Assembly (NCBI GenBank): GCA_036006525.1
Contig: DASYPP010000060.1
Coordinates: 23,794 to 87,793 of the forward strand
Source: Gemmatimonadales bacterium
GTDB lineage: Bacteria > Gemmatimonadota > Gemmatimonadetes > Gemmatimonadales > GWC2-71-9
Reading direction: 5' to 3'
Length of the DNA: 64,000 nucleotides
Part shown: positions 366 to 59,312 of the stretch, one piece after another
Layout: each line of letters starts with the position of its first letter
How positions within the stretch are numbered: the stretch's first letter is position 1
Translations under genes and position numbers: made by a program
Notes under the pieces: generated by a model
Database searches by the model: none
Told to the model about the DNA's origin: nothing
What the model saw: only the letters and a program-made list of their open reading frames with translations

Positions 366-515
366 TTCAAAAAGCTCCTCGTGGCGGACGCGGTGCAGCG
401 CGGCGCACGCGGTGAAAATCAAGGACACTATTGTGACACCCTCGAGAACTTCGTTGAAGTGCTTCGCCGCGGCCTCCGCGAAACGCCGCGGTCGCCGCGG
501 GGAGGAGTTGCAAGG
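366..515. repeat. long inverted-repeat element, CTCCTCG/CGCGG-unit arms (copy 1 of 4)
   Basis: Left arm 374..413 gctcctcgtggcggacgcggtgcagcgcggcgcacgcggtg. Right arm 462..515 cttcgccgcggcctccgcgaaacgccgcggtcgccgcggggaggagttgcaagg. Lies between the two dehydrogenase subunit genes. Confidence 0.7.
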
Positions 516-532
516 CTCAAATCCAACCTCAT

Positions 533-1114
533 CTATCGGGCCCGATACCCGACGAAGGGGGCGCAGCCATCATACCGGCCGGGGATGACCTGGTTGTGAA
601 GCTCCCGGGTGGCTCCCACTTCAGAAGTGTAGTAGCCGTACAGGGTAAGGCCCTTGAGCCGGTGGTAGAAACTGTTGTTCAAGTTCTCGTGCCGGCTGCG
701 CATCGCCTGGGCTTCGCTGTCCAGCGCGGTGAGCAGGCCGACCTGGTCCGCTTCGGTGCCGTCCACGAAATCCTTGCCGAATCGTTCCCGGCTTTTCGTG
801 TCCAGGCTCTCCAGTCCTTCCATGAACCGGTCGCGATCTTCCGGGGTGTCCCATTCGCCGACGATTACCGCGATGAACCCGGTCACCCCGGCCGCGAGGG
901 CGCCCGGGGTGTCGGTGGCCGGCAAGATCAACTCGGTGGCGCGATCGAGGGTCGCGGCCTGGTGCGGCGTGAAGGGTCCCACCGGGCCCGTTGTCGGGCG
1001 AGTCCGGGCGTGCGCCTTGGCGCCCCGGGCCAGCAATTCATCCGGAGTGAACGCGGCCAGGGCGCTACCGGCGGTGAGTCCACCCAGCAGGCCCAGCAAT
1101 TCGCGGCGATGCAT
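533..1114 (-). CDS. gluconate 2-dehydrogenase subunit 3 family protein (Tat-signal small subunit)
   Basis: 193 aa. Twin-arginine-like signal MHRRELLGLLGGLTAGSALAA; C-terminal FYHRLKGLTLYGYYTSEVG is typical of this family; paired with the GMC gene. Confidence 0.7.
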   Translation of the reverse strand: MHRRELLGLLGGLTAGSALAAFTPDELLARGAKAHARTRPTTGPVGPFTPHQAATLDRATELILPATDTPGALAAGVTGFIAVIVGEWDTPEDRDRFMEGLESLDTKSRERFGKDFVDGTEADQVGLLTALDSEAQAMRSRHENLNNSFYHRLKGLTLYGYYTSEVGATRELHNQVIPGRYDGCAPFVGYRAR

Positions 1115-1186
1115 GCGGGCTCCACAAGAGTTGCGGAAGAGTGCAAGCCTAAGTTGGCGATTCGGGCGAGCGGGCGCCAGAGCGTT

Positions 1187-1675
1187 TTACGCTTTTCGCC
1201 CGCTACCCCGGGTCGCCGCGGGCGAGCCGCGAATGAAACCGATGTAATCCGTCGGCGCCGGGGTGGAACCACCGGCGCGCATCGCGGCGGCCAGCTGGCC
1301 GCGATGGTAGCTGCCGTGAAGACAGACGTGGAGCAGGATGTCTTCGACCGTCGAGGTGAACTCCTGCCCCGCAGAATTGATGTAGCGGACGCTCCGGGCC
1401 CGCTCCGCCGGCGGCAGTGCGGCGACGAAGGCGGTGAACTCCTTCCCGTTTTCTTCGGCCAGCCGGCGGCAGTCGGCCAGGGACAGGACCGGCCAGACTG
1501 CCACATGGGGCGCGAATCCCCTGATACGTGACAGCCAGACGTGCTCGGCCCCCAGGATGTGTCCGAACAGCTCGAGCCAGCGCTCGGCGGTAGCCGGCGC
1601 GGCCTCCAGGGCCGCCAGGACGGCGGCATCGGACCACGCCAGATGGGCGAAGAGTCTTTCGATGTAATCGGTCAT
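1187..1675 (-). CDS. DinB family protein
   Basis: ORF 1187..1741 trimmed to MTDYIERLFAHLAWSD (ATG comp 1673..1675). DinB-like His motifs: HILGAEHVW and LLHVCLHGSYHRGQL. Confidence 0.7.
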   Translation of the reverse strand: MTDYIERLFAHLAWSDAAVLAALEAAPATAERWLELFGHILGAEHVWLSRIRGFAPHVAVWPVLSLADCRRLAEENGKEFTAFVAALPPAERARSVRYINSAGQEFTSTVEDILLHVCLHGSYHRGQLAAAMRAGGSTPAPTDYIGFIRGSPAATRGSGRKA

Positions 1676-1777
1676 GGGACCCGCACTGGATGATAGTTCA
1701 GGGTATTCCCCGATGGTTCCCACTCGTTGTCCAGCAACCACTTGCGGTTTCTCTGCAGGCGGCGCATGCTCATTAAC

Positions 1778-2818
1778 ATGACCCTGTATGACCCGACACA
1801 GGCCCGAATCCTTATCGTGGACGACGAGGAAAAAAATGTCAACGTCCTGGGGCGGATGCTGGCCAGCGCGGGCTATGGCACCATCCGGGGTTGCACCGAC
1901 TCGACCCAGGCCATCAGCACAGTCCAGGAGTTCAGCCCTGACCTGATCCTGCTCGACCTGACCATGCCGTCACTGGATGGCTTCGAGGTCATGGAAGCGC
2001 TCAATGCCCTGTTACCCCCCGACAGCTACCTTCCGATCCTGATTCTCACCGGAGATATCCGCTTCGAGGCCCGACAGCGCGCGCTCTCCAGCGGCGCCAA
2101 GGACTTTCTGCTCAAGCCCTTCGACATGACGGAGGTCCTGCTCCGGATTCGCAACCTGCTGGAGACTCGCTTTCTCTATCTGCTGCATAAAGACCAGAAC
2201 CAGATGCTCGAAATCCGGGTCGCGGCGCGAACCGGGGAGCTGGAGGAGGCGCGAGTGGAGATTCTGCAGCGGCTCTCCTACGCGGCGGAGTTTCGGGACG
2301 ACGATACCGGGCAGCACACCAAGCGGGTGGCCAGCCTGGCGATGGCGCTAGGTGCGTCGCTGGGATTGGACCGCGAACGGCTCGAGCTGATTCACCTCAC
2401 CGCACAACTCCACGATGTGGGCAAGATCGGGATTCCCGACGCGGTGTTGCTGAAGCCCGGCAAGCTCACGGCGGGTGAGTTCGAAATCATGAAGACCCAC
2501 ACCTCGATCGGAGCCAGGATCTTCGCGGGCGGCAAGTCACCCCTGGTGCGGATGGCGGAAGCTATTGCGCTCAATCACCACGAGAGATGGAACGGGACCG
2601 GATACCCCAATGGGCTCAAGGGCGAGGCGATCCCGCTGGAAGCGCGCCTGGTATCGGTGGCCGATGTCTACGATGCCCTGAGCCATCCGCGGCCGTATCG
2701 GGGCGCATGGAGCCCCGCCGATACTCGAAAGGAAATCGAACAGGGAGCCGGCGGCCACTTCGATCCCGAGCTGGTCGAGATCTTCCTCAAGCTGCCGGCC
2801 GACGCCTTTCCCCGCTGA
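1778..2818 (+). CDS. response regulator with HD-GYP output domain (c-di-GMP phosphodiesterase type)
   Basis: Receiver domain (ILIVDDEE...DLILLDLTMPSLDG...KPF) followed by HD-GYP (HDVGKIGIP...HHERWNGTGYP). Start moved to ATG 1778 (MTLYDPTQARILIVDD). Confidence 0.85.
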   Translation: MTLYDPTQARILIVDDEEKNVNVLGRMLASAGYGTIRGCTDSTQAISTVQEFSPDLILLDLTMPSLDGFEVMEALNALLPPDSYLPILILTGDIRFEARQRALSSGAKDFLLKPFDMTEVLLRIRNLLETRFLYLLHKDQNQMLEIRVAARTGELEEARVEILQRLSYAAEFRDDDTGQHTKRVASLAMALGASLGLDRERLELIHLTAQLHDVGKIGIPDAVLLKPGKLTAGEFEIMKTHTSIGARIFAGGKSPLVRMAEAIALNHHERWNGTGYPNGLKGEAIPLEARLVSVADVYDALSHPRPYRGAWSPADTRKEIEQGAGGHFDPELVEIFLKLPADAFPR

Positions 2819-2840
2819 ATCTGCGGCTCACTGACCACAC

Positions 2841-2903
2841 CTGTAGTAGACCCACCTCAGCCGCCTCGAACACCGCCACATACCGTCTACTAACTGTAGT
2901 AGC
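2841..2903. repeat. short direct plus inverted repeat (CTGTAGTAG x2; TAGTAGAC/GTCTACTA)
   Basis: ctgtagtagac at 2841..2851 and gtctactaactgtagtagc at 2885..2903, upstream of the first Kelch lipoprotein gene. Confidence 0.5.
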
Positions 2904-2992
2904 AGAAATGATTTACGCATTGAGTCCCAACCGCATTCCGGGCCTTAAACCTGCTGGGATGAGGCGAAATCATCTTCATCGCTGGGGAAACC

Positions 2993-5194
2993 ATGATCGC
3001 ACCACGACTTGGCCGCTGGACGCTTCTGGCTGCCTTGCTGCTTGTGGCCTCCTGTACCGATACGAGCAACGCCCCCTCCGGGCGGGGCTTGCCTGTCAGT
3101 TTTTCCGTGTTCTCCGGCAATGGCCAGAACGGCACTGTCGGCCAGGAGCTTCCCCAGCCGATCAAGGTGCTGGCGACTGATGTGAATAACCAGCCCATCG
3201 CGAACCAGGTCGTGAACTTCGTGGTGACGGCGGGAGGCGGCAGCGTGTTCGCCGGCACCGCGCTCACCAACGTGAACGGCATCGCGGCGGAAGTCTGGCG
3301 GCTGGGAACGGTAGCGGGATCGGTGCAAACGGTGGAAGTTCGCGCGGTGGCGTCCGACGGCACCAAGCAGGTGTTCGGCGTCTTCACCGCGAATGCCCTC
3401 GCTGGAGCGCCCGACACCATCGTCATCAACGGGGGTGACAACCAGAGCGCGCCGGTGAACGCGGCGGTGGCGATCGACCCCTCGGTACGGCTGGCCGACC
3501 AGTACGGCAACCCGGTCCCCGGCCACTCGGTCACCTTCCTGGTATTGAGCGGAGGCGGTGGGATCACCGGCTCGCCCGCTCTGAGCAATTCGTCCGGCAT
3601 CGCGACCGTGGGCAGCTGGAGCATGGGACCCACGGCCGGGACCAATACGCTCCGGGCCACCGCCGCGGGATTGCCGTCGACCCCCGTGGTCTTCACGGCG
3701 ACCGGGCAGGCGGTCTCGACCCCGCAGCTCGCGATCACCACCCAGCCGGCGGTGAACGGGCAGAGCGGCGTGGTTCTCAATCCCCAGCCGGTCCTGCAAC
3801 TCCAGGACAACCAGGGCCAGCCGCTGCACCAGGCCAATGTCGCCGTCACCGCGTCCATCAACAGCGGCGGCGGCACCCTGGGCGGCACGGTTACCGTGAA
3901 CACCGATATCAACGGCGTTGTGACCTTCACCAACCTGTCCATCTCGGGCCTCGTGGGTCCCCGCACTCTCGCGTTCAACGCGACTGGAGTGACCGGCGTG
4001 ACCTCGGGAACCGTCAACCTCGCGGCGGGCCTGGCGGCGCAGATCGCGGTGAACGACGGTAACGGGCAGTCGGCCAATGCCGGCAGCGCCCTCAGCACGG
4101 CGCCCTCGGTGATCGTCACCGACGGGGCCGGCAACCCGGTGGCCGGCGTCTCGGTCACCTTCATTCCCGCGACCGGCGGCGGCAGCGTGACCGGCGGAGG
4201 GCAGACCACGGACGCGTTCGGCGTGGCGCGGGTGGGAAGTTGGACCCTGGGACCCACATCGGGGAGCAACACCCTGAGCGCGACGGCCACCGGCTCCGGG
4301 ATCAGCGGCAATCCAGTCACCATCACCGCCACTGCCTTGGGGAATTTCTGGATGACGCGCGCGTCGATGCCGACGCCGCGCCGCTTCACGGCGTTCGGCG
4401 TCATCAACGGCCTGCTGTACGTCGCCGGCGGGAAGAACGCCAGCCTGACAGTGGTCAAGACGCTCGAGATCTACAACCCCGCGACCAATACCTGGACCAT
4501 CGGCAAGGGGATGAACTCGGCGCGGGTGGGCGCGGCCTACGGCGTGATCAATGGTCTGCTCTACGTGGCGGGTGGAACCAGCCCCACGAATGTCGACCTG
4601 GCAACCGTCGAGTCCTACAACCCGGCGACCAATACCTGGACCAACCGGGCCAGCATGCCTGCGCCGCGAAACTTTGGTGCCTCGGCAGTGGTGAACGGTA
4701 TCCTGTATGTCGCCGCCGGCGGCACATCTGCGGGCCAGACCAACCTGGTGTACGCCTACGATCCGGTGTCCAACACGTGGAGCACCAAGGCATCGCTGCC
4801 GGCGGTGCGGAACGACGCGGTAGGTGCGGCAGTCGGCAACCTGTTCTACGTCATCGGCGGGCAGCAGAACAACACCAACGACGGAGCATTGCAGGTATAC
4901 AACCCGGCCACCGACACCTGGAGCCAGGCCGCCACCATGGGCACGCCACGCTTCCACACCAACGCGGTGGTTTATAACGGATTGATCTACGTCGCCGGCG
5001 GGCTCCTGACCGGTGCCATCGCGACACCGGTTACCGAGTACTATGACCCGGCTTCCAATACCTGGACCCCGGTTGCCGACATGCCGACCGGCCGCAGTGG
5101 TGCCGCGATTGGCCTCATCGGTGGCATCCTCTACGTGGCCGGCGGCAGCGCCAACAGCAACGTGCTGGGAAGCAACGAAGCGTACGTGCCATAA
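2993..5194 (+). CDS. lipoprotein with N-terminal bacterial Ig-like (Big_1/invasin-type) repeats and a C-terminal six-blade Kelch propeller
   Basis: 733 aa with lipobox LLLVAS-C. About four Ig-like segments share the recurring pattern V.F.V..GGGS...T...G.A.V..W.LG...G.N.L. These are followed by six Kelch-like blades (P.PR....GV.NG.LYV.GG......E.YNP..N.W). Confidence 0.75.
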   Translation: MIAPRLGRWTLLAALLLVASCTDTSNAPSGRGLPVSFSVFSGNGQNGTVGQELPQPIKVLATDVNNQPIANQVVNFVVTAGGGSVFAGTALTNVNGIAAEVWRLGTVAGSVQTVEVRAVASDGTKQVFGVFTANALAGAPDTIVINGGDNQSAPVNAAVAIDPSVRLADQYGNPVPGHSVTFLVLSGGGGITGSPALSNSSGIATVGSWSMGPTAGTNTLRATAAGLPSTPVVFTATGQAVSTPQLAITTQPAVNGQSGVVLNPQPVLQLQDNQGQPLHQANVAVTASINSGGGTLGGTVTVNTDINGVVTFTNLSISGLVGPRTLAFNATGVTGVTSGTVNLAAGLAAQIAVNDGNGQSANAGSALSTAPSVIVTDGAGNPVAGVSVTFIPATGGGSVTGGGQTTDAFGVARVGSWTLGPTSGSNTLSATATGSGISGNPVTITATALGNFWMTRASMPTPRRFTAFGVINGLLYVAGGKNASLTVVKTLEIYNPATNTWTIGKGMNSARVGAAYGVINGLLYVAGGTSPTNVDLATVESYNPATNTWTNRASMPAPRNFGASAVVNGILYVAAGGTSAGQTNLVYAYDPVSNTWSTKASLPAVRNDAVGAAVGNLFYVIGGQQNNTNDGALQVYNPATDTWSQAATMGTPRFHTNAVVYNGLIYVAGGLLTGAIATPVTEYYDPASNTWTPVADMPTGRSGAAIGLIGGILYVAGGSANSNVLGSNEAYVP

Positions 5195-5198
5195 GCTG

Positions 5199-5233
5199 CA
5201 GAAGATGTGAACCAGAAGTGAATAAGAAGTGAG
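5199..5233. repeat. tandem ~11-bp units with AGAAGTGA core
   Basis: cagaagatgtga accagaagtga ataagaagtga, in the gap between the two Kelch paralogues. No inverted partner seen. Confidence 0.4.
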
Positions 5234-5318
5234 CGGCGGGAGGGGGAAGCTGGCCTGAGTCGTGCTAATGGAATGGTGGGGTTTGCCTCGTTCCTGGACA
5301 CGATTTCCGGAGCTCTCG

Positions 5319-7502
5319 GTGCCAGCTTTTCGCCCAGCCATTCTGTGCCTTGTCCCGCTTGCGCTTCTGCTCGCCTCCTGCGGCGCCAGCGACAGCACCG
5401 GTGTTTCCAACCGCGGTGTTCTCCTCGAAATCAAGAACGGCGATCAGCAGACTGGCACCGTCGGCGCCAGCCTGCCGGCGCCGGTTGAAGTGCAGGTTAC
5501 CGACCTGCTCGATCACCCGGTGTCCGGGCAGGTGGTGAACTTCATCGTGGTCGCGGGCGGCGGCGATATTGCGCGCACCGTGTACACCAACGGGAACGGG
5601 GTCGCGAGCGTCACGTGGCAACTGGGGACGGTCGCCGGCTCGAGCCAGCAGGTAGAAGCCCGGACCCTGGGCGGTGACGGCATTCGCAAGTCGATCCTGA
5701 TCACCGCCACCGCAGCAGCCGATCAACCGGATACCATCACGGCCATGAGCGCGATCCAGCTCTCCGCGGCGGCCGGCACAGCGGTGCGAACCCGGCCCAG
5801 CGTGCGGCTGGCGGATCACTACGGCAACCTGGTGACCAATCACCCGGTGACTTTCGCCGTCACCACCGGTGGCGGCAGCCTGCAGGGTGCGGTCGCGACC
5901 ACTGACTCTCTCGGTATCGCCACGGTCCAGCGCTGGACGCTGGGTTCGGCCCAGGGTCCCAACCAGGTCACCGCGACTGCCGCCGGGCTGCCTCCCCTCT
6001 CCTTCAACGCCAATGCCACCTCGCCGCTCGCCAGCCACATCGGGCTGACCATGGAGCCCGCGCCGGTGGGGCAGAGCGGAGTCACCCTCACCCAGCAGCC
6101 GGTGCTGCAGATCATGAACGACAGCGGCGATCCCATTCCGCAGTCCGGCGTGCCGGTGACCGCCAGCCTCGTGAATGGTACCGGGCTCCTGATCGGGTCT
6201 GCGACCGTCAACACCGATACCCTGGGGATCGCGACGTTCTCCAACCTGGCGATCGGCGGAACCGTCGGCCTGTTCAGCGTCCAGTTTGTCGCGCCATCCC
6301 TCGCGCCCGATACCTCCGCCACGATCGCGCTTGCCGCGGGGCCGGCCACCACGTTCGGATCCAACGCGGGACTCAACCAGAGCGCCAATGCCGGGGCCAC
6401 GCTCCCCATCGCCCCCAACGTCAGGGTGTCGGATGACTGGGGCAACGGTATCCCGGGCGTGACGGTGGTATTCACCGTGGCACTGGGCGGCGGCTCGGTC
6501 ACCGGCGGCACCCAGGTCACCGGGAGCGACGGCACGGCTACGCTCGGATCATGGACCCTGGGTCCTCTTCCCGGAACCAATTCGCTCTCCGCCACGGCCG
6601 GCAGCAGCAACCTCTCGGGCAACCCGCAGACGATCGAGGCCACCGGGTTGGGCGATTTCTGGTCGCCCCGCGCGTCGATGACCACCCCGCGGCGTTTCGC
6701 CGGGTTCGCGATCAACGCCGGGCTCCTGTACACCGTCGGCGGCAAGGACGTCAACCTTGCGGTCACCAGCGTGACCGAGGTCTACAATCCGGCCGCGAAC
6801 ACCTGGAGTCCGCGGGCCAGCATGACCACCGCCCGGGTCGGCGCGGCGGCCGGCTTCATCGGCGGCAAGCTGTATGTGGCGGGCGGCAATGGCGCGAACG
6901 GTCTCGCTACCCTGAACACCGAGGTCTATTCGCCGAACAACACGTGGGCTCCGTTCGCCGCGTTGCCGGGGCCGCGGGCGTTTCCGGCTTTCGGGGTATT
7001 GAACGGGCAGTTGATCCTGGCGGCGGGCGCCGACAATGTCGGCCAGCTGTCCTCGGTCGTAATGTACGATCCGGTGACGAATGCGTGGACGGCCAGGGAT
7101 TCACTGCCGGTGGCGAGAAACGACGCGGTCGGCGTGGTGCTTGGCGGGAAGTTCTACGTGATCGGCGGCCAGGCGGGGAACACGGTGGACGGAGCCCTCT
7201 ACGGGTACGATCCCCAGAGCGACAGCTGGACCACGCTCGCGTCGATGCCGACCCCCAGGTACCACGCGAATGCGGAAGTGCTGAATGGCAGGATTTACGT
7301 GGTCAGTGGAATTGTAGCCGGCGGGAATACTACGCCGGTGGTGGAAGTGTATGACCCGGCAACCAACACGTGGTCCACCGCCACCGACGTCACCACCGAA
7401 CGCTCGGCGGGTGCGATCGGCGTGGTGAATGGAATCCTCTACCTGGCCGGCGGGAGCTCGAACAACACGGTGACCGGCGTGCTGGAAGCGTACGTCCCAT
7501 AA
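5319..7502 (+). CDS. lipoprotein, paralogue of 2993..5194 (Ig-like repeats + Kelch propeller)
   Basis: Same architecture as the upstream gene, roughly half the residues identical by eye, and both end in EAYVP. Start uncertain: GTG 5319 (GGAG 6 nt upstream; VPAFRPAILCLVPLALLLAS-C lipobox) is preferred over 5262/5268. Confidence 0.7.
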   Translation: MPAFRPAILCLVPLALLLASCGASDSTGVSNRGVLLEIKNGDQQTGTVGASLPAPVEVQVTDLLDHPVSGQVVNFIVVAGGGDIARTVYTNGNGVASVTWQLGTVAGSSQQVEARTLGGDGIRKSILITATAAADQPDTITAMSAIQLSAAAGTAVRTRPSVRLADHYGNLVTNHPVTFAVTTGGGSLQGAVATTDSLGIATVQRWTLGSAQGPNQVTATAAGLPPLSFNANATSPLASHIGLTMEPAPVGQSGVTLTQQPVLQIMNDSGDPIPQSGVPVTASLVNGTGLLIGSATVNTDTLGIATFSNLAIGGTVGLFSVQFVAPSLAPDTSATIALAAGPATTFGSNAGLNQSANAGATLPIAPNVRVSDDWGNGIPGVTVVFTVALGGGSVTGGTQVTGSDGTATLGSWTLGPLPGTNSLSATAGSSNLSGNPQTIEATGLGDFWSPRASMTTPRRFAGFAINAGLLYTVGGKDVNLAVTSVTEVYNPAANTWSPRASMTTARVGAAAGFIGGKLYVAGGNGANGLATLNTEVYSPNNTWAPFAALPGPRAFPAFGVLNGQLILAAGADNVGQLSSVVMYDPVTNAWTARDSLPVARNDAVGVVLGGKFYVIGGQAGNTVDGALYGYDPQSDSWTTLASMPTPRYHANAEVLNGRIYVVSGIVAGGNTTPVVEVYDPATNTWSTATDVTTERSAGAIGVVNGILYLAGGSSNNTVTGVLEAYVP

Positions 7503-7503
7503 C

Positions 7504-7586
7504 GATTGAGGGGAGTGAAGGGAGTGAAGGGAGTGAAGGGATTGTGGGATTGAAGCAATCCCCTCAATCCCATCAATCCCATCAAT
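7504..7586. repeat. tandem-unit hairpin (9-mers GTGAAGGGA / TCCCATCAA)
   Basis: gattgagggga + (gtgaaggga)x3 + ttgtggga ttgaag, then caatcccctcaatcccatcaatcccatcaat. Perfect central stem gggattg-aag-caatccc (7546..7562). Between convergent genes, and overlaps the rlmN stop. Confidence 0.8.
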
Positions 7587-8643
7587 TCTTACGAACCCTC
7601 TCCTTCTTTTCGACTTCCACTCTCAATTGGCCGCAGGCCGCACTGATATCGAGTCCGCGGCTTCTCCGCACCACCGCCTCCACGCCCTGATTCCGGAGCC
7701 GGTCCGCAAAGGCGTGGATCCGGTTTCCTGACGATGGCGTCAGGTCGGGCGCCCCGCCGGGATGCAGCGGCAGAAGATTGACCAGCGCGCCCAGGCTTCG
7801 GGCCAGCTTGACCAGCTGGTCCGCATCTCGATCGGTGTCGTTCTTTCCCGCGATCAGTACGTACTCGAAGGTGACCCGCTTGCGAAACACGCGAGCGGCT
7901 TTGAGCACGGCATCCAGGTCGTATTTCTTCTCGATAGGCATGATCGCCCGGCGGCGCTCGGTGGTCGGAGCGTGCAGGGAGATCGCCAGCCGGAACTGCT
8001 CCGGCCGCAGGGCCAGCGACTCCATCCCGGGTATGATCCCCACGGTGCTCACCGTGATGTGCCGGGCGCCGATGCCGAGTCCTGCCGGATGGTTCAGGAT
8101 GGTGAGCGCGGTATCCACCGCCGGCCAGTTGAGCAGCGGCTCCCCCATGCCCATGAAGACCACGTTGGTGGCGGCCTCGTCAGGATGCCGGAGTACCACC
8201 TCGCGCGCCTGACCCGCGATCTCGAAGGGCGAGAGATTGCGCCGGAATCCCATGCGGCCGGTTGCGCAGAAGACGCAACCCAGCGCGCAGCCCGACTGCG
8301 ACGATACGCAGAGCGTCCGCCGGGTGCCGGAGGGGATGAGCACCGATTCGATGGCTTCGCCGTCCGGGAGGCGCCAGAGAAACTTTCGGGTCCCATCGCT
8401 GCTATCCTGCCGGGTTTCGAGCTGAAGTTCCGGCAAGGGGAGCTCCCGGTCGAGCTCATCGCGCAGTCCCGCGGGCAGTTCGGTCGCTTCGGCCCAGCGC
8501 CGCACCGGGCGGGTCCAGAGTCGATCCACGATCTGGCCGGCCCGATAGCGGGGCAGGGACTTGGTTTTGACCCATTCCTCGACGCGGGCCTTTGCGTCCG
8601 TGGGGCTGAGGTCGAGGATGGTTGGGTCCGGGAGCTTTGACAT
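7582..8643 (-). CDS. rlmN: 23S rRNA (adenine2503-C2)-methyltransferase, radical SAM
   Basis: Radical SAM motif SGCALGCVFCATG (CxxxCxxC), GMGEPLLN, C-terminal ISAACGQL. Start trimmed to MSKLPDP (ATG comp 8641..8643). Confidence 0.9.
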   Translation of the reverse strand: MSKLPDPTILDLSPTDAKARVEEWVKTKSLPRYRAGQIVDRLWTRPVRRWAEATELPAGLRDELDRELPLPELQLETRQDSSDGTRKFLWRLPDGEAIESVLIPSGTRRTLCVSSQSGCALGCVFCATGRMGFRRNLSPFEIAGQAREVVLRHPDEAATNVVFMGMGEPLLNWPAVDTALTILNHPAGLGIGARHITVSTVGIIPGMESLALRPEQFRLAISLHAPTTERRRAIMPIEKKYDLDAVLKAARVFRKRVTFEYVLIAGKNDTDRDADQLVKLARSLGALVNLLPLHPGGAPDLTPSSGNRIHAFADRLRNQGVEAVVRRSRGLDISAACGQLRVEVEKKERVRKN

Positions 8644-8743
8644 GGCAGTAAGATAGGCACCCTGCAAGGTCCTGAATGCGGCAATGTGGGAATGGGGGAA
8701 TCAAGAAACAGGTAACGGATCCCATCGAATTGTGGCATTTCGA

Positions 8744-8775
8744 CTTACCGTCTTACCGTCTTACCGCCTTACCGT
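8744..8775. repeat. tandem array (CTTACCGY)x4
   Basis: cttaccgt cttaccgt cttaccgc cttaccgt. The upstream short array aatgtgggaatgggggaatc (8683..8703) is not complementary to it. Confidence 0.7.
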
Positions 8776-8817
8776 CCTGTTGTTACGTTTCCCCCATGAC
8801 ACCGCCCCCCGGACCGT

Positions 8818-9273: not shown

Positions 9274-9284
9274 ACTCTTCTACG

Positions 9285-9311: not shown

Positions 9312-9314
9312 TCA

Positions 9315-50883: not shown

Positions 50884-51004
50884 GGGGTCAAAACGTTAAC
50901 CGGTCGGGAAAGCGGAGCAAGTTGCGGCGGGTATGCCACAGGGTGCCCATGACTTGCGTCGGAGGTATCTTTATTCCCTCCTGATCCCGGAAATACCCGT
51001 ACTC

Positions 51005-52837: not shown

Positions 52838-52907
52838 GTCGGGCCTCCGTGCCCGACCTGGAATCGATGAGCATCCCAGTCCGGTCGGGCACGGAGGCCC
52901 GACCTAC
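52834..52907. repeat. REP doublet (REPIN-like): perfect 25-bp inverted repeat GTAGGTCGGGCCTCCGTGCCCGACC
   Basis: Arm 52834..52858 is the exact reverse complement of arm 52883..52907, with a 24-bp spacer. Each arm is itself a hairpin (ggtcgggc-ctccgt-gcccgacc). Confidence 0.9.
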
Positions 52908-53767
52908 CCATCCCAGTCGTAAAACCCCTTCCCGCTTTTCTTCCCCAGCTTACCCTCTTTCACCATCTGTCGCATCAGCGCCGGCGGCTCGTATTGCGCC
53001 CCGCCCAGGGTGCCGTGCAGGTACTCCGCGATCCGGAGCCGCACATCGAGCCCTACCAGGTCGGTCAGCCTGAGCGGCCCCATCGGATGGTTGTAGCCCA
53101 GCTCCATCGCCTTGTCGATATCCTCCGGGCTGGCGACACCCTGTTCCACCATCCGGATCGCTTCGAGGCCCAGCACCACGCCCAGCCGGCTGGAGGCGAA
53201 CCCGGGTGAATCCTGCACCACGATCGGTTCCTTGCCCAGCGCGCGTACGATGGCAAGAGCATCGGCCCGGCTCGCTTCGCTCGTCCCGGGATGGACGACG
53301 ATCTCCACCAGTTTCATCAGGTGGACCGGGTTGAAGAAATGCAGACCGAGAAAGCGATCGGGGCGGGGAAGGCCGCCGGCGAGGGCCGCGACCGAGAGCG
53401 ACGACGTGTTGGTCGCGATCAAGGCACCGGGGCTGGCGGCATCGGCGGCCTGGATCAATACCTGACGCTTCACCGCCGCATCCTCCACCACCGCTTCGAT
53501 GACGAGATCCACGCCACTGCATGCGGCAGCGATGTCGCTGGCACCCAGGATCCTGCCGCGGACAAGCTCGCGCGCTTCGGGGGTCATCTTGCCCCGGGTC
53601 ACCGCGCCTTCCAGGGTCTTTTCGATCGCGGCGAGCGCGGTCGGCACCGCCTCGGCCCGGGCGTCGCAGAGCCGCGCATCCCATCCCGCCGTCGCGGCTG
53701 CCTGGGCGATGCCGGATCCCATTGTGCCGGCGCCGATCACCGCGACCCGCTTCACCATGAACCCCAT
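52904..53767 (-). CDS. 3-hydroxyacyl-CoA (3-hydroxybutyryl-CoA) dehydrogenase
   Basis: VAVIGAGTMGSGIAQ, HFFNPV, and C-terminal KSGKGFYDW. Start ATG 53767 (TGATG junction) or 53758. Confidence 0.85.
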   Translation of the reverse strand: MGFMVKRVAVIGAGTMGSGIAQAAATAGWDARLCDARAEAVPTALAAIEKTLEGAVTRGKMTPEARELVRGRILGASDIAAACSGVDLVIEAVVEDAAVKRQVLIQAADAASPGALIATNTSSLSVAALAGGLPRPDRFLGLHFFNPVHLMKLVEIVVHPGTSEASRADALAIVRALGKEPIVVQDSPGFASSRLGVVLGLEAIRMVEQGVASPEDIDKAMELGYNHPMGPLRLTDLVGLDVRLRIAEYLHGTLGGAQYEPPALMRQMVKEGKLGKKSGKGFYDWDG

Positions 53768-54450
53768 CAGTGGATCTCCTTCACCGCGGCGCGCAGCCGG
53801 TCCGGGTAGTTGCCGCAGAGCCCGTCCACCCCGAGCCGGGTGAGCGCCCTGGCGTCGCGTGGCTGGTTTACCGTCCAGGCGATGAGTTTTCCCCTCGCCC
53901 CGTGCACCGCGCTCACCATCGCGGCGTCGAGCAGGCCGTGATCCTGCCAGATCGTGCCGGCGCCCGCCGAGCGCATCAGGGCGACCGGATCGAGCGGATA
54001 GGAGGAGAGCAGGATGCCCCGGGGAAGGCCGGGCTTGAGCGCTCCGAGCCGGGCGATAATGCGGTGGTCGAATCCATGGACGGCGTAGCGGGAAGGCGCC
54101 GGGCCCTGGTCCAGCACCGAGAGCAGGCTCGGGTCAAAGGCGGGGCTCAAGGTCTTCACTTCGACATACACATCGAGGTCGCCCAGGATATCGAGGACCT
54201 CGGGCAGGGTCGGGACCGGTTCCCCGTTGGGGAGCCGGAACTCCTGCATCTCCATGTAGCTGAGGTGGCCGATCGGCCCCAGGCCCTGCAGCTCGGCATC
54301 GTGATGGACCAGGATGATGCCGTCGCTGGTGGAATGCACGTCGAGCTCGACGCCATCGGCGCCGAGCTCGACTGCCAGGGCAAAGGCGGCGCGGGAGTTC
54401 TCAAACTCGCGGCCGGAAGCGCCCCTATGAGCAATTATGGTGGGTGACAT
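53767..54450 (-). CDS. glycerophosphodiester phosphodiesterase family protein
   Basis: IIAHRGASG..ENS, ELDVHST.DG..VV.HD. Confidence 0.85.
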   Translation of the reverse strand: MSPTIIAHRGASGREFENSRAAFALAVELGADGVELDVHSTSDGIILVHHDAELQGLGPIGHLSYMEMQEFRLPNGEPVPTLPEVLDILGDLDVYVEVKTLSPAFDPSLLSVLDQGPAPSRYAVHGFDHRIIARLGALKPGLPRGILLSSYPLDPVALMRSAGAGTIWQDHGLLDAAMVSAVHGARGKLIAWTVNQPRDARALTRLGVDGLCGNYPDRLRAAVKEIH

Positions 54451-54456
54451 CAGTAT

Positions 54457-54531
54457 GATGCTGTCATCCCGAGCGAAGCGAGGGATCTTCTCACCTCGGG
54501 CAAGATTCCTCGCTACGCTCGGAATGACATC
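54457..54531. repeat. GTCATCCCGAG...CTCGGAATGAC-type 75-bp palindromic element (copy 2)
   Basis: gatgctgtcatcccgagcgaagcgagggatctt-ctcacctcgggc-aagattcctcgctacgctcggaatgacatc. Confidence 0.85.
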
Positions 54532-54537
54532 TAGTGA

Positions 54538-55668
54538 CTAGTTGTCATCATCAGATTTCTTCGCTTCAATCCAGTCATTGTCCTTGAAGATATTCCGGAG
54601 CAGCTCGCGGTCCTCGGCCGTCGGAACCACCGATGCCAGGTAGGCGGCATACTTCGACCCGTCGATCTCGTCTCCATCCACCGTAAAGGCCTGGCCTTTG
54701 TAGAGCCCGATCCTCCGGTTGAACTTGATATCCGGGATCTTGAGATGCCGATCGTGGTCGGGGATCGCCATGTTGAGCCGGACCACCAGGCGGGTGATCT
54801 CCTGCCGGTAGAGCTCGCGGCTCGCCTCGTTCAGGTGAGCGACGTCCGCGGCGTCATCAACCTCCCGCTCGTTGAACCGGCCCTTGAGACCCCAGACATA
54901 GGCCCAGTGCGCGCTGGACGAGTTGTCGGTGCCGAACAGGTCGAAGGCGGTCGGAACCCACTTGTTGAAATAGCGCTGCATCACCTCGGGCGGAATCCGG
55001 CCGGCCTTTACGATGCGGAGTAACCCGTTGTTCCCGGTGCCCAGGTGGAAACTCTCCTCCTTGAGCATGGGGCCCATCGAGTTGGCCAGCGGCAGAAAAG
55101 CCGAGGTGGACAGCATCTTCAGCTGGAACTTGCCGTCCCGGTCGATGAACTGGGTATAGGTGTAGAAGTCGAGCCAGTTCTCCACGATCTCGTTGAACGA
55201 GCCCAGCAGTCGCTGGCCTTCCTCGGCCCGGCGCTCCAGCAGCTTGGCCGCCTCGCGACGGCCCTCGTCGCCGAAGTGCTGGCACAGCAGGTAAGACATC
55301 TGCCAGCCATGGCGCATTTCCTCGCTCATCACCCGCACCAGGGCGAACAGGTCGTAGTCGCTGGGCGAATTGTGCAGCAGGGCCTTCTGCTGTTCCACCG
55401 AGGCGAACTCGGTGTCGCCCTGGAACACGATCAGGTTGAGCAACGCATCCCGGATCCGCTGGTCGGGGATGTGCATGATCGTCTTCCACTTGTTGTTGCC
55501 CTTGTAGTGCCCGAACTCGATCGCGTCGGCCTCGGAGGCGGAGAACTTGGCATCGAACGCGAAATTCTTCGGGATCCGGGCGTTGAAATCCTTCATCGGC
55601 AGGCCGATAGACTCCTGCCAGAAATGGAAGTAGTCGATCCAGTCATCGAAGTTCATCAGGCGACGCAT
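54538..55668 (-). CDS. BoxB-like ferritin-fold di-iron protein (benzoyl-CoA 2,3-epoxidase B / PaaA-type oxygenase family)
   Basis: Two ExxH motifs about 90 aa apart (SEEMRHGW; KEESFH). QGDTEFASVEQQ and FIDRDGKFQL resemble BoxB as I remember it. 376 aa, shorter than the roughly 470 aa of BoxB. SD AAGGAG upstream. Confidence 0.55.
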   Translation of the reverse strand: MRRLMNFDDWIDYFHFWQESIGLPMKDFNARIPKNFAFDAKFSASEADAIEFGHYKGNNKWKTIMHIPDQRIRDALLNLIVFQGDTEFASVEQQKALLHNSPSDYDLFALVRVMSEEMRHGWQMSYLLCQHFGDEGRREAAKLLERRAEEGQRLLGSFNEIVENWLDFYTYTQFIDRDGKFQLKMLSTSAFLPLANSMGPMLKEESFHLGTGNNGLLRIVKAGRIPPEVMQRYFNKWVPTAFDLFGTDNSSSAHWAYVWGLKGRFNEREVDDAADVAHLNEASRELYRQEITRLVVRLNMAIPDHDRHLKIPDIKFNRRIGLYKGQAFTVDGDEIDGSKYAAYLASVVPTAEDRELLRNIFKDNDWIEAKKSDDDN

Positions 55669-55682
55669 GGTAGATCTCCTTA

Positions 55683-55766
55683 ATGGCTTATGGCGTGTTG
55701 CTTATGGCTTATGGCGTATGGCAATCGCTACCGCCCATTACCGTCTAATACCGCCTATTACCGCCC
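55683..55766. repeat. two adjacent non-complementary tandem arrays (TATGGC-type + TACCGCC-type)
   Basis: atggcttatggcgtgttgcttatggcttatggcgtatggcaa (55683..55724), then ctaccgcccattaccgtctaataccgcctattaccgccc (55728..55766). Confidence 0.7.
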
Positions 55767-56573
55767 CTCGAAACGTGGTGCTCGTTTCTCACCAAAGCTC
55801 CTGAAGCCTTCCGAGGCGTCACTGGTCTTGAAACAGCGTTCCTGGTTGGCTTCTTCCCGCGCCAGCGCATCGGCCATGGTGCCCGTGTGCGAGGCGTAGA
55901 CCGCCTGCTTGGCGAGCCCGGCGGCGATCGGCGGCAGCGCGGCCAGCTTCAGCGCCCATTCCCGGGTAGCGACGGCCAGCTGGTCGTGCGGCACGACCCG
56001 GTTCACCAGTCCCAGTTCCATGCAACGCTGGACTGGAATCACCTCGGCCGACCAGATCAACTCGAGCGCGGCAGCGGGCCCGGCCAGTTCGGGCACGAAC
56101 CAGGTGCCACCCCAATCCGGGTGCAGCCCGATCCGGTGAAATACCTGTCCGATGCCGGCCTGGTCCGATGCGATGCGGAGGTCGCAGCCGAGCGCGAGGT
56201 TGGCACCGCCACCGGCCGCCACGCCGTTGATGCTGGCGAGGATCGGCTTGGGACTCTCCCGGAGCGAGCGCACCAGCTGACCGCCCATCCGCACCAGGCT
56301 CATCGCCGTGTCGAAATCGCCTTGTTCGACGCAGCGGCCGAGGAACTTCACGTCGCCGCCGGCGCTGAAGCCGCGGCCCGCCCCGGTGATCACCAGCGCC
56401 CGCACCGCCGGGTCGGTCAGGAGCTCGCGCGACGCCTCGATCAGCTCGCGGGCCATGACGTCGTCGATGGCGTTGAGCTTGTCGGGACGATTGAGCGTGA
56501 GGGTCCCGATGCCGGAATCGATCGCCACGGTGACCGTCTGGTAGTCTGCGACGGCGGACTTGTCACTTGTCAC
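55758..56573 (-). CDS. enoyl-CoA hydratase/isomerase family protein
   Basis: [34 protein letters not shown]. The GTG start overlaps the thiolase TGA (GTGA) inside repeat 56559..56587. Confidence 0.85.
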
Positions 56574-56587
56574 TTGTCACCTGTCAC
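56559..56587. repeat. tandem array (TTGTCAC)x4 at a gene junction
   Basis: cttgtcacttgtcacttgtcacctgtcac. Encodes the thiolase tail NVTGDK, its TGA stop, and the GTG start and first residues (TSDK) of the next gene. Confidence 0.75.
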
Positions 56588-57772
56588 ATTCTCGATGATC
56601 ATCGCGATTCCCTGGCCCACCCCGATGCACATCGTCGCCAGACCGAAGCGGCCGCCGGTACGACGGAGTGCGTGGACCAGCGTGGTGAGGATCCGGGCGC
56701 CCGACGCGCCCAGCGGATGCCCCAACGCGATTGCGCCGCCGTAGATGTTGACCCTGGCCGGATCCAGCTTCAACTCGCGAATGCAGGCGATGCTCTGGGC
56801 CGCGAAGGCCTCGTTCAGCTCGATCAGGTCGACCTGGTCCAGCGTAAGCCCGGTGCGCTCGAGCAGCTTCCGGGTCGCGGGGATCGGCCCCAGGCCCATG
56901 CAGCTGGGATCCACACCGGCCACCGCGGAGGCGATGACCCGCGCGATCGGCTTCCGGGAAAGCTCCTGCGCCGTGCTGTCGCTCATCACCGCGAGCGCTG
57001 CGGCTCCGTCGTTGATGCCGCTCGAGGTTCCCGCCGTCACCGTGCCGTCTTTCACAAAGGCCGGCTTCAACGGCGCCAGGCTGTCCGGGGTGACGCCGGC
57101 CCGGGGATACTCGTCCTTTTCAAAGCGGCGTGCCTCCTTGCCGGGCAGGGTCACCGCGACGATCTCGTCGCCGAAAACGCACTGGGCCAGGGCCTCCTGG
57201 GCCCGGCGCTGGCTCTCGGCGGCGAACTCGTCCTGCTCCCGCCGCGAGATGCCATGCAGCTTCGCGACTTTCTCGGCCGTCTCTCCCAGCGAGATAGTCC
57301 ACTCCGATTTCATGGCCGGGTTCACGAAGCGCCAGCCCACCGTGCTGTCGGCGATCGGCGGCGGTGTCCGGTTCCACGGCGTCCCGCTCTTGAGCAGGAC
57401 GTAGGGGGCCCGGGTCATGCTTTCCACCCCGCCGGCGATGAAGAGATCGCCCTCGCCCGCTTTCACCGCCTGCGCGGCCGAGGCCACGGCCTGGAGACCC
57501 GAGCCGCAGAGCCGGTTCACCGTCTGCCCCGGCACCTCCACCGGGAGGCCGGCCAGCAGCGAGGCCATGCGGGCGACGTTGCGGTTGTCTTCGCCGGCCT
57601 GGTTGGTGCAGCCGAGGATCACGTCGTCGATCCGGTCGGCCGGAATCTTCCCTTGTTCGACCACTGCCCTGACGACGAGAGCGGCGAGGTCATCCGGGCG
57701 CATGTCGGCCAGGCTGCCGCCGACCTTGCCGATCGGGGTGCGGAGGGCCGTCGTAATGACCGCGTTCTTCAT
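56570..57772 (-). CDS. acetyl-CoA C-acyltransferase (thiolase)
   Basis: [11 protein letters not shown] (active Cys), [24 protein letters not shown]. Start ATG 57772 (ATGA overlap with the aldehyde dehydrogenase stop). Confidence 0.9.
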
Positions 57773-59202
57773 AGACCGACCCACACCGTCTTGGATTCCA
57801 TGTAGCCATCCAGCGCGACCCGGCCCAGGTCCCGGCCGAATCCACTCTGCTTGTATCCCCCGAACGGTGCCGCCGGGTCGTAGATATTGTAGGTGTTGAC
57901 CCAGACGGTTCCCGCCTTGATCCTGCGGGCCAGCTTGTGGGCCTTGCTGATGTCGCGGGTCCAGATTCCCGCCGCGAGGCCGTACATCGACTGATTGGCC
58001 AGCGTGGCCGCCTCTTCGTAGCTCTCGAACGGCAGCACCGCGAGCACCGGGCCGAAGATCTCCTCCCGCGCGATGGTCATCTCCGGAGTAATGCCGTCGA
58101 ACACCGTCGCCTCGACGAAATAGCCTTTGCCGTTCACCTTGGCGGCGTTGCCTCCGGCCACCACGGTGCCGCCCTCAGCCTTGCCCTTGGCGATGTAGCC
58201 CATCACGGTCTCCTGCTGTTTCCGGGAGACCACCGCACCCAGCCGGGTGGCCTTGTCGAACGGATCGCCGGGGATGAGCTTCTTCGCCCGCTCGGCCAGC
58301 TGCTCGACCACCTGGTCCTTCACCGACTTCTCCACCAGCAGCCGGCTCCCGGCGGCGCAGACCTCGCCCTTGCCGTAGAAGATGCCGCTCTGGGCTCCCT
58401 TGATCGCGGCGCCGATGTCGGCATCGGCGAAGATGATGTTGGGACTCTTGCCGCCCAGCTCCAGGGTCAGCCGCTTCACCCCGTTGGCCGCTTCCCGCAT
58501 GATGACCTTGCCCACCTCGGTAGAGCCGGTGAACGAGATCTTGTCCACGCCGGGATGCCGCACCAGTGCCATGCCCGCGCTGCGGCCGCCGCCGGTCACC
58601 ACGTTGAACGCGCCGGACGGGAGGCCGGCCTCCAGCATCACCTGGCCCAGGGCGAGGGCGGTAAGCGGAGTTTCGCTGGCGGGCTTGAGTACCACGGTGC
58701 ATCCGGCGGCCAGCGCCGGCGCCACCTTCCACATCGCGATGTTGAGCGGAAAGTTCCAGGGGACGATCGCGGCGACCACGCCCACCGGCTCCCGCAGGGT
58801 GTAGACGAAATACGCCGGGTCGAGCGGCAGAGTCTCCCCGGTCAGCTTGTCGCACCAGCCCGCGTAGTAGCGCAGGGTTTCGATCGCCATGTTGCAGTCG
58901 ATGTTCGACTCGAACAGCGGCTTGCCGTTCTGCTGCGACTCAAGCTTCGCGAAGTCCGCCTGCCGGCTGGCCAGGATGTCCGCCGCCCTGGCCAGCATCG
59001 CGCCGCGCTTCCTGGGGGCCAGCTGCTGCCACGCATCGCTGTCAAAACACGTCCGCGCGGCCGCCACCGCGGCGTCCACGTCGCTGGTGTCTCCGTCCGG
59101 CACCTGGGCCAGGACTTCTTCGGTCGCGGGGTTCGTGACGTCGAAGCGCTTGCCGCTCGCGGCCGGGCGGTACTCGTTCGCAATGAAAAGATCAGTGTGC
59201 AT
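57769..59202 (-). CDS. NAD(P)-dependent aldehyde dehydrogenase
   Basis: [32 protein letters not shown]. Confidence 0.9.
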
Positions 59203-59217
59203 TGAGTCCAGTTGTTT

Positions 59218-59312
59218 GGGTAAGCGGTAAGCGGTGAGCAGTAGGCGGGACTGGAGGACGGTTTCGAGTGATCGTTGCCAGTCCCGCTTACCGCTTACTG
59301 CTTACTGCTCAC
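59218..59312. repeat. tandem-unit hairpin (7-mers GGTAAGC / GCTTACC)
   Basis: gggtaagcggtaagcggtgagcagtaggcgggactgg ... ccagtcccgcttaccgcttactgcttactgctcac. Perfect inner 10-bp stem gcgggactgg/ccagtcccgc. Confidence 0.8.

Follow-up and report, generated by a model that had tools for sequence, protein, structure and literature searches.

Most intergenic gaps over 100 bp in a 64-kb stretch of DNA from an uncultured soil bacterium of the Gemmatimonadales (contig DASYPP010000060.1, positions 23,794 to 87,793; ~66% G+C; referred to below as the window) contain a palindrome or an array of short tandem units. These elements are of three kinds: hairpins with arms built of tandem 7- to 10-nt units (unit-armed hairpins), dispersed palindromes resembling MITEs (miniature transposable elements with inverted repeats), and a GTAG-tagged family of repetitive extragenic palindromes (REP/REPIN). 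They start about −20 to +30 nt from stop codons. Among relatives that are 91 to 98% identical, we found filled and empty sites, replacement of one family by another, nesting, partial deletions, and changes in unit number. The explanation we favor, and hold to be on balance probable, is that semi-selfish palindromic families bloomed in one genus-level lineage, in which they are tolerated after stop codons, with insertion, slippage, and copying from arm to arm as the sources of renewal.

According to Pfam, the genes of the window are an ordinary housekeeping and catabolic set. They include AspRS, a PhoH-YbeY-CorC cluster, a methylmalonyl-CoA mutase cluster, RNase G, L21/L27, and beta-oxidation-type genes; a tRNA scan of the window found none. 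Homologs of its AspRS and RNase G assign it to uncultured Gemmatimonadales. About 7% of the window (~4.5 kb) is intergenic. Three sets of sequences, ~1.7 Mb in all, were used for comparison: syntenic loci of relatives with 91 to 98% identical AspRS or RNase G (L001 to L005 and L086 to L088), 80 further loci from species-representative genomes with an AspRS identity of 66 to 91%, and 42 metagenome contigs picked by the terminus pattern of one of the dispersed palindromes (family A, see below). The assemblies of the relatives are independent and come from ENA, JGI, and NCBI samples; ERZ27265208, ERZ1760244, and JGI 3300005518 are samples with contigs of close relatives. For each site, the minimum free energy (MFE) was compared with that of 100 dinucleotide-preserving shuffles. 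Inverted repeats were collected by a gapless anti-diagonal scan (score ≥14), as a BLAST-based finder overlooked many imperfect arms. Tandem arrays were detected by TRF, and RNALfold z-scores served for a further scan. Statistics on hairpin position and polarity were based on 68 hairpins from the window and 83 related loci.

The original prediction had listed structured elements at 25 coordinates, and the described content was present at 25/25. At 20 of the 25 sites, the MFE was reached by 0/100 shuffles (z −3.3 to −14.6). Of the other five sites, three (5199-5233, 8744-8775, and 56559-56587) carry arrays with one arm only, 55683-55766 is chimeric, and 2841-2903 did not reach significance. The scans of the whole window also pointed to the gaps. 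The longest 17 inverted repeats were all intergenic (17/17), none of the 16 inverted repeats with a score ≥14 in the gapless scan lay in a coding interior, and 16 of the 17 regions with an RNALfold z ≤ −5.7 were intergenic. Together, the listed elements cover ~2.4 kb, about half of the intergenic DNA. The statement that essentially all gaps over 100 bp are occupied was correct for most of them and failed for the divergent promoter gaps 22003-22173 and 60748-60931 and for 2819-2992. Among the other divergent gaps, the 86-nt gap 40628-40713 has no element, and 8668-8817 holds a one-armed array without a hairpin (z −0.9). The four proposed architectures overlap; the CGCG-type long inverted repeats turned out to be ~9- to 10-nt tandem units inside conserved termini.

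The predicted placement was borne out: the elements are found where genes end, in convergent gaps, and within likely operons. Hairpins occupied 38/257 co-directional and 27/128 convergent gaps (65/385 together), compared with 1/84 divergent gaps, and their density was 0.0137/kb in coding interiors and 0.212/kb outside. The median distance from the stop codon to the 5′ arm was 9 nt. The stop often lies inside the arm, as is the case for AspRS, DinB, ACAD, ECH, and both genes flanking a REPIN. The 5′ arm was purine-rich on either strand in 54/68 hairpins (p = 2e-7), with G exceeding C in 51 and C exceeding G in 8. Stop triplets numbered 80 in 5′ arms and 24 in 3′ arms (sign test, p = 0.005). The idea of a three-frame "backup stop" was discarded, since only 8/68 5′ arms contain stops in all three frames. 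At the protein level, AspRS ends in ...VTSDK* in the window (11069-11087) and in ...VTE* in L001, and the ACAD tail DGNGR* (41929-41946) is encoded by GGCGGTAAT-type units.

The window is also unusually rich in these elements, as had been suspected: their density is about five times that of other Gemmatimonadales. A long inverted repeat between −30 and +60 nt from the stop was found at 19/32 gene ends of the window with a gap of ≥40 nt, compared with 48/433 in other Gemmatimonadales, and all five convergent gaps (5/5) are occupied. Hairpin density was 0.25/kb in the window, 0.14/kb in the closest relatives, and 0 to 0.1/kb in most other loci, with values of up to 0.23/kb in a few (L029, L040, and L053).

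A unit-armed hairpin has a 5′ arm in which a 7- to 10-nt unit is repeated in tandem and a 3′ arm formed by the complementary array. Among the units are GTGACAA, GCGTATGGCATAT, GGGAGTGAA, GGCGGTAAT, GTGGGGCA, and GGTAAGC. Sites and lineages differ in their unit sequence, and this one window alone contains a dozen or more units that are unrelated and have four different lengths. Runs of three or more G are present in only some of them (GGGAGTGAA and GTGGGGCA). Arms were periodic in 37/68 hairpins, compared with 1.4% of random segments; the period was 7 in 24 and 8 in eight hairpins. Arrays with a period of 6 to 12 were ~5 times denser outside coding interiors (335 in 347 kb) than inside (258 in 1334 kb), and the commonest periods were 7, 9, and 8 outside and 6, 9, and 12 inside. 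With no common tag and no single family sequence, the unit-armed hairpins do not qualify as REP or REPIN.

Several hairpins of the window represent this kind. At 11069-11143, a heptamer-armed hairpin, (GTGACAA)4.4 / (CTTGTCA)4.1, is located at the AspRS end (z −5.1), and its 5′ arm holds the last AspRS codons and the stop (11085-11087). The hairpin at 7504-7586, (TGAAGGGAG)3.9 / (CAATCCCAT)3.4, lies in the convergent gap between the second Kelch gene (Kelch-2) and a radical-SAM gene (z −3.3). At 16646-16768, a heptamer-armed hairpin with GCGTATGGCATAT-type units begins one base past the CNNM stop (z −6.0); this family is retained with differing unit numbers in L001, L003, and L005, and its arms recur with another loop at another locus (L089/L099). 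The hairpin GGCGGTAGT / CATTACCGCC at 19134-19221 covers the DinB stop in a convergent gap (z −9.0). At 41929-42040, the 5′ arm of a hairpin with GGCGGTAAT-type units of 9 to 10 nt encodes the ACAD C-terminus and stop (z −5.9). The octamer-armed hairpin GTGGGGCA / ACCCACCG at 44040-44140 starts 3 nt past the RNase G stop (z −4.1). Finally, a heptamer-armed hairpin (GGTAAGC / CCGCTTA) is present at the ECH end (59218-59312; z −9.1), and the ECH stop TGA (59309-59311, minus strand) is inside its first unit.

Orthologous gaps of close relatives were compared, and filled and empty sites were found. In the AspRS/PhoH gap, the (GTGACAA)n hairpin of the window corresponds to a 3-nt gap in L001/L002 (98% identity), to a (GTGCAGA)n hairpin in L003, and to a 3′-arm-type scrap only (CTCTGCAC) in L005; the hairpin of L003 is 83 nt longer in L004, although the AspRS encoded by L003 and L004 is the same. 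Nine other lineages carry other units at the site of this hairpin. The period-7 units at the AspRS stop in the ten lineages include AGTGACA, GTGACAG, GTGYAGA, CGTGAGA, AGTGAGA, AGTGAAA, AGTTCGG, GAGTTCC, and GGGAACG. In each lineage, 0 to 2 bases distinguish the 5′ unit from the reverse-complemented 3′ unit. Thus, the change of unit is mirrored in all units of both arms. A single GTGACAG in L001 was considered as proof of the birth of a GTGACAA hairpin in situ, and this was dropped in view of the comparable scrap in L005: because L005 keeps a 3′-arm-type remnant, single units may be deletion scars.

Other junctions behaved similarly. The S58/GSDH gap contains a 66-nt palindrome in the window (39329-39404) and is empty in L087/L088; in L086, this palindrome is nested in a (GCGGACAG)n hairpin. 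At the RNase G/L21 junction (44040-44140), L087/L088 have an unrelated octamer hairpin of the GGCAGGTC type and L086 has none. The unit hairpin of the Kelch-2/radical-SAM gap is replaced in L003 and L005 by the GTCATTCCGAG palindrome, the family to which the 66-nt palindrome belongs. The same palindrome replaces the hairpin of the ACAD/RNase G gap (41929-42040) in L086, and the hairpin there is longer in L087/L088. The GSDH/ACAD gap contains a hairpin in L087, and differing partial deletions are seen in L088 and in the window. In L005, a GTCAyCCCGAG palindrome is nested centrally in the hairpin corresponding to 19134-19221. An internal control is provided by the ~360-nt RNase G leader, which is almost invariant in L086 to L088 while its flanking hairpins are swapped. 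Thus, the turnover is specific to the palindromes.

This leader (42041-42407) is non-coding, the true RNase G start being at 42408 (from P0121). It is predicted to fold into a long multi-stem structure and is a candidate autoregulatory leader. Neither the RNase E 5′ UTR element nor any other Rfam family matched it.

The second kind comprises dispersed palindromes. Family A consists of MITE-like "CTCCTCGCGG" palindromes of 130 to 210 nt, which have termini of approximately GCAAMRGCTCCTCGCGG at both ends, three or four CGCGGNGNN units (~9 to 10 nt) per arm, and an AT-richer loop of 30 to 140 nt. Four copies are present in the window (at 366, 18459, 28303, and 33183). The terminus pattern was found in dozens of copies across the 42 metagenome contigs, in which the termini were invariably paired about 130 to 230 nt apart. 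A search of the distant loci with the terminus pattern (CTCCTCGCG...CGCGAGGAG) mostly retrieved high-G+C coding DNA, and true copies were limited to the window, L003, and L005. The copy at 366-515 lies between the Gluconate_2-dh3 and GMC-oxidoreductase genes (z −3.9, 0/100 shuffles). In L003 and L005, these genes overlap by 8 nt (ATGGCTGA) and the element is absent. The insertion rewrote the Gluconate_2-dh3 C-terminus (~330-370) and the N-terminus of the GMC oxidoreductase (533-560). The copy at 18459-18608, with CGCGAAGGA units, lies between ABC1 and DinB (z −8.3); the loops of its orthologs in L003 and L005 are unrelated. The loop of the copy at 28303-28506 (z −5.0) is homologous to that of 33183-33394, the best-preserved copy with 54-nt arms (z −10.8). 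These two loops have in common CTTGTGGGT..GATTTGACA(A)TTGT...AATC(C/G)GCACCCA, and other copies contain GACAAT/ATTGTC-like motifs in AT-rich loops. Such an AT-rich center would favor cruciform extrusion.

Families B and C are built like family A, from GCGCAAAG- and GCGCTGAG-type units, and they also recur in metagenome contigs. A family B hairpin with GGCGCAAAG / GGCGCCGAG units is located between AtuA and its ferredoxin-like partner gene (32676-32747; z −6.3) and has similar copies in L093, L109, L116, and L117. A second one, between Ser/Thr kinase and peptidase S58 genes (38124-38192; z −4.5), is represented by its left part alone in L086 and is absent from L087. Family C includes the long inverted repeat with GCGCTGAG-type units and an AT-rich loop at 26078-26231 (z −7.2), which has relatives in L112, L121, and L130. 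The other copy fills the convergent gap at 46504-46649 and, with 58-nt arms, is the longest inverted repeat of the window (z −14.6).

The GTCATTCCGAG palindrome, with a 66-nt core and the ends CTGTCATYCCGAG...CTCGGRATGACAG, is highly conserved in sequence. We found 14 copies across the order in the loci compared. The window has two: the MITE-like copy in the convergent gap at 39329-39404 (z −8.3) and one in a minus-strand fatty-acid-type gene cluster (54457-54531; z −9.2). In the alignment, 4 of the 25 pairs showed compensatory changes. In five cases, the palindrome was nested centrally in another hairpin. A BLAST search with the 76-nt palindrome against 72,556 plasmids gave no match. Both family A and this palindrome have terminal inverted repeats, multiple copies, and filled/empty polymorphism, which are marks of MITEs.

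The third kind confirms that part of the original prediction which spoke of REP-like palindromes: one family is a genuine GTAG-tagged REP/REPIN. Each REP consists of an unpaired GTAG tag followed by GGTCGGGC, a loop, and GCCCGACC, with an 8-bp stem. A singlet at 9285-9311 reads GTAGGTCGGGCCTCCGCGCCCGACTAG on the minus strand and contains the exact GTAGGTCGGGC (z −3.4); it is present in L001 and L005 and absent in L003. At 52834-52907, a REPIN-like head-to-head dimer has the exact GTAGGTCGGGC on both strands, 31-nt arms that are 94% complementary, and a 24-nt spacer (z −11.5), and it overlaps each of two convergent stop codons by 5 nt. A pair of REP-like units with GTGG/GTAG tags pointing inward was detected inside the meaB coding sequence (22856-22911). 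All three have the structure that defines REP/REPIN. The meaB reading frame stays open, and the MeaB Pfam match encloses the pair, which has the look of a protein insertion translated from REPs inside the gene. Allowing for one mismatch, the REP 11-mer occurs 7 times in the window (1.64±1.40 expected; 0/100 shuffles reached 7), and 79 matches were found in 48/86 loci.

The original prediction knew of no formal description for this kind of genome. Our literature search on Gemmatimonadetes/Gemmatimonas REP, MITE, or palindromic repeats, or on the motif string, returned no description. No Rfam family matched the window at the gathering threshold, and at E ≤ 1 only sub-threshold generic miRNA-hairpin matches were seen over 38000-56000. 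Hairpins with arms of tandem 7- to 10-base units are not described in the literature searched for this phylum.

Comparison with known systems placed each kind next to a different one. GTAG-tagged palindromes associated with RAYT transposases have been described in other phyla (Di Nocera et al. 2013, PMC3733652; Bertels & Rainey 2011, PMC3116915), and Gemmatimonadota were outside the phyla surveyed for GTAG repeats (PMC3733652). The GTAGGTCGGGC...GCCCGACC family resembles them in its unpaired GTAG tag, 8-bp stem, singlets, head-to-head dimer, location downstream of genes, single intragenic pair, and order-wide occurrence. In contrast, most elements described here (unit-armed hairpins, families A to C, and the 66-nt palindrome) lack the GTAG tag and are much longer, and a RAYT was not seen.

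The unit-armed hairpins are closest to the GGGAATC repeats of Xanthomonas, which together with the GGGGAYT repeats of Nostoc are intergenic heptamers (Rehm et al. 2015, PMC4692102). Shared properties are the tandem 7-nt units, G-richness of the stop-adjacent strand, a position mostly within 50 bp of the stop codon, depletion in coding DNA and divergent gaps, and a length that varies between close species. In Xanthomonas, 70 to 75 heptamer pairs are convergent and capable of forming stem-loops (PMC4692102). However, Xanthomonas uses one genome-wide, G-quadruplex-capable unit, and inverted pairs are a subset. Here, a genome contains a dozen or more units of 7 to 10 nt, most of them without G-runs; inverted, hairpin-forming arrays are the norm, and lineages differ in the unit present at a single site. 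The STRR of Calothrix/Anabaena and the TAACTGA repeats of Beggiatoaceae are intergenic heptamers that provide forward stops in all three frames and so can overlap gene ends by a few codons only (PMC4679880). The enrichment of stop triplets in our 5′ arms is a similarity, but STRR and TAACTGA are direct repeats with one unit per genome and are located mostly upstream of starts, with one inverted case (Beggiatoa).

Family A and the 66-nt palindrome resemble MITEs in being small, non-coding, and multi-copy, with terminal inverted repeats and filled/empty sites. They differ in that no clear target-site duplication was seen and no parent insertion sequence turned up in the sampled contigs. In addition, the terminal inverted repeats of families A to C are arrays of ~9- to 10-nt units, and the 66-nt element nests in hairpin apexes. 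Similar nesting was reportedly described by Elhai et al. in 2008 for small dispersed repeats of cyanobacteria. Other palindromic mobile elements of bacteria are Correia/NEMIS, ERIC, SMAG of Stenotrophomonas, and the small non-coding repeats of Deinococcus.

The position of the hairpins raised the question of whether they act at the RNA level, and the original prediction had suggested that they substitute for terminators. Its claim of a single canonical terminator (44825-44853) was confirmed by consensus scans against shuffles: terminator-like consensus sites numbered 6 in 1-20000 (10.0±3.3 by shuffling) and 10 in 32001-52000 (11.9±3.4 by shuffling). Only this terminator, located after L27, combines a gene-end position with 8 G-C pairs and TTTTTGTTT; it is conserved in L086 to L088. 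Loosely defined canonical terminators were present at 6 to 17% of gene ends everywhere and at only 1 to 2 of 32 in the window. Our elements share with canonical intrinsic terminators a stable hairpin past the stop. In contrast to them, they have no U-tract, have arms of 25 to 58 nt, are strand-symmetric, and are dispensable in close relatives. Among the tails of 38 co-directional hairpins, a T-run was found in only one (L013). The sense fold was more stable in 18 and less stable in 19 hairpins (Wilcoxon p = 0.68), and G-U pairs were not enriched in the sense fold (26 sense, 36 antisense). Because there are no U-tracts and no sense-strand bias, and because one element splits overlapping subunit genes, the elements are not canonical terminators. 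The substitution is doubtful for these reasons and also because elements are missing from close relatives with an otherwise unchanged locus.

A broader form of this idea is that the elements are the real terminators of the lineage: hairpin-only ("I-shaped"), bidirectional signals that replaced the U-tract type at 66% G+C, with slippage as a quick way to lengthen stems. The occupancy of the window is in its favor, with a long inverted repeat at 19/32 gene ends and 1 to 2 canonical terminators, 5/5 convergent gaps filled, and divergent gaps avoided. So is the turnover, in which a lost family is often succeeded by another at the same site and arm complementarity is preserved as units change. However, the missing U-tract and the lack of a sense advantage in stability or G-U pairs do not fit it, nor do the element between overlapping subunit genes, the elements inside the minus-strand beta-oxidation-type cluster, and the absence of a hairpin at the same junction in relatives that are 96 to 98% identical. 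Moreover, other Gemmatimonadales have hairpins at 11% and canonical terminators at 13% of gene ends. Since hairpins are few and canonical terminators are no more frequent elsewhere, termination in the order is independent of the elements. A dedicated terminator role is therefore unlikely, and we give the idea that the elements are the real terminators of the lineage about one chance in four. At 366-515, the gene arrangement would require either inefficient termination or a promoter supplied by the element. Family A loops were inspected for promoters; no consistent −35/−10 pair was found by eye and none by consensus scan.

Equally improbable in our judgment is that the elements form an undescribed Gemmatimonadales class of stop-anchored palindromes, the 7- to 10-nt-unit arms of which evolve in concert through a dedicated process or through selection as the main transcript-end signal. 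The dedicated process would be either a system for mobilization or copying directed at the apexes of hairpins, or selection in favor of hairpins that tolerate shifts of register and replace the hairpin-plus-U-tract; it is covered by the same low estimate.

Still less credible is the proposal that a protein specific to the lineage uses the unit arrays as a binding platform on DNA or RNA, for example with one protein per 7- to 10-nt unit and the palindrome arising from binding to both strands. Some units do recur, in the window at 4 to 5 sites (GGCGGTAAT type) or 2 sites each (GTGACAA and GCCATAC), and in L029 at 3 sites (GTGAAAA), and the purine-/G-rich 5′ arm described above would suit such a protein. 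However, a dozen or more units without mutual relationship, of four lengths, coexist in 64 kb, and 96%-identical relatives have wholly different units at the same site; no candidate protein was identified. Assembly artifacts of metagenomic contigs can practically be dismissed: L001 does open (1-251) with a perfect fold-back with 119-nt arms centered on a GGGAGTGAA hairpin, but the same elements occur at the same junctions in independent ENA, JGI, and NCBI assemblies, inside contigs and between intact genes. The L001 fold-back is almost certainly an assembler artifact at a contig end and shows that these palindromes disturb short-read assembly.

According to the explanation we favor, tolerated semi-selfish families, several co-existing non-coding palindromic families would gather in the only permissive DNA, just past stop codons. 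The 66-nt palindrome, families A, B, and C, and the GTAG REP/REPIN would insert at gene 3′ ends; the 66-nt palindrome is repeatedly found in the apex of pre-existing hairpins. Replication slippage of 7- to 10-nt units and arm-to-arm copying by intrastrand template switching would then expand, shrink, and homogenize the arms, which could remain complementary even as lineages diverge in unit sequence. Deletions stimulated by the palindromes would remove elements. In transcripts, the elements would form 3′-UTR or intercistronic hairpins starting at the stop codon, which by analogy may block 3′-to-5′ exonucleases and partly attenuate read-through. REP/BIME elements of E. coli act as exonuclease barriers and cause partial attenuation, and the positions observed here are compatible with such effects.

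The insertion and deletion steps are supported by the comparisons of filled/empty, nested, and partially deleted sites among relatives. Slippage and template switching are suggested by differences in unit number, periodic single mismatches per unit, and mirrored unit changes. We infer mobility as such and every RNA-level effect. Tolerance can account for the anchoring at stop codons and for the purine-richness of 5′ arms, because a stop-containing unit can expand at a gene end without lengthening the protein; the same argument has been made for the TAACTGA repeats.

Several points weigh against the favored explanation. High occupancy and family-for-family replacement would also fit selection for the presence of some hairpin. 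The unit-armed hairpins fit birth in situ as well as dispersal, and the single GTGACAG of L001 may be a seed or a scar. The junctions at 39329-39404 permit a target-site duplication of 0 to 3 nt (CCC) and are thus ambiguous. Pfam detected neither a Y1_Tnp domain nor any transposase in the open reading frames of the window, and when 1.68 Mb of loci were searched by tblastn with RayT of E. coli, no hit fell below E = 4, a weak test that sampled a small part of the genomes. As no transposase or RAYT was found, the case for mobility rests on distribution and on filled/empty sites. Element densities in the metagenome contigs are biased by their selection for family A, and gene calls in the related loci, made with our own GC3-based caller, are approximate.

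If the unit-armed hairpins are active at the RNA level, they would show how transcripts can be ended or stabilized without canonical terminators in a poorly studied and abundant soil phylum. If they are mainly products of DNA-level processes, slippage and copying between arms have left in them a natural record of unusual clarity, as has the drawing in of further palindromes by palindromes, which bears on the persistence of repeats in compact genomes. In practice, the elements break short-read assemblies, change where proteins end and genes start, and lead gene callers astray in metagenome genomes of Gemmatimonadota. Due to their fast turnover, they are candidate markers for strain typing.

The remaining elements of the window are one-armed arrays, a chimera, and a composite palindrome. 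An array with an 11-nt unit (×2.8; plus strand) follows the stop of Kelch gene 1 (5199-5233; TRF score 41, dG 0). The divergent gap mentioned above holds (CTTACCGT)4.1 (8744-8776, plus strand; TRF, 92% matches), the unit number of which is different in L001 and L005. The array (GTGACAA)4.3 on the gene strand (56558-56587, minus strand; TRF, 95% matches) spans the thiolase stop and the ECH start and forms no hairpin. At 55683-55766, two unrelated arrays, (ATGGCTT)5.7 and (TACCGCCTAA)3.7, are adjacent and do not form a hairpin (z −0.9). They are non-complementary, with one arm each from the GCCATAC and GGCGGTAAT families, and the chimera is probably a deletion product. The weak inverted repeat GTAGTAGAC...GTCTACTA at 2841-2903 was not supported as an element (dG −8.6, z +0.3); 60/100 shuffles folded equally well, and it is not conserved in L003/L005.

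At 44806-44853 (plus strand), (GGACTRA)n heptamers come straight after the L27 stop and are followed by the sole canonical terminator. This one-armed GGACTAA/GGACTGA array (44806-44824) has 3 units in the window and 5 in L086 (~8990-9025), and it supplies stops in all three frames before the terminator. A composite palindrome of small hairpins with GCTAAAGC loops follows at 44856-44983 (z −6.3). At this site, past L27, an opposite-strand Metallophos gene is present in L086 to L088 (L086, 9096-9980) and missing in the window. The arrangement suggests that the gene may have been lost by deletion between inverted copies. One distant locus, L059 (CAXMUQ010000009.1), was binned as "uncultured Acidimicrobiia"; its AspRS is 71% identical to that of the window, as in Gemmatimonadales loci, and the contig is probably mis-binned. 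Finally, a strong hairpin absent from the original list, GGCGATTCGGGCGAGCGGGCG...CGCCCGCTACCCCGGGTCGCC, was detected at 1156-1220, where it spans the 3′ terminus of a gene of the DinB family (minus strand, 1187-1741).

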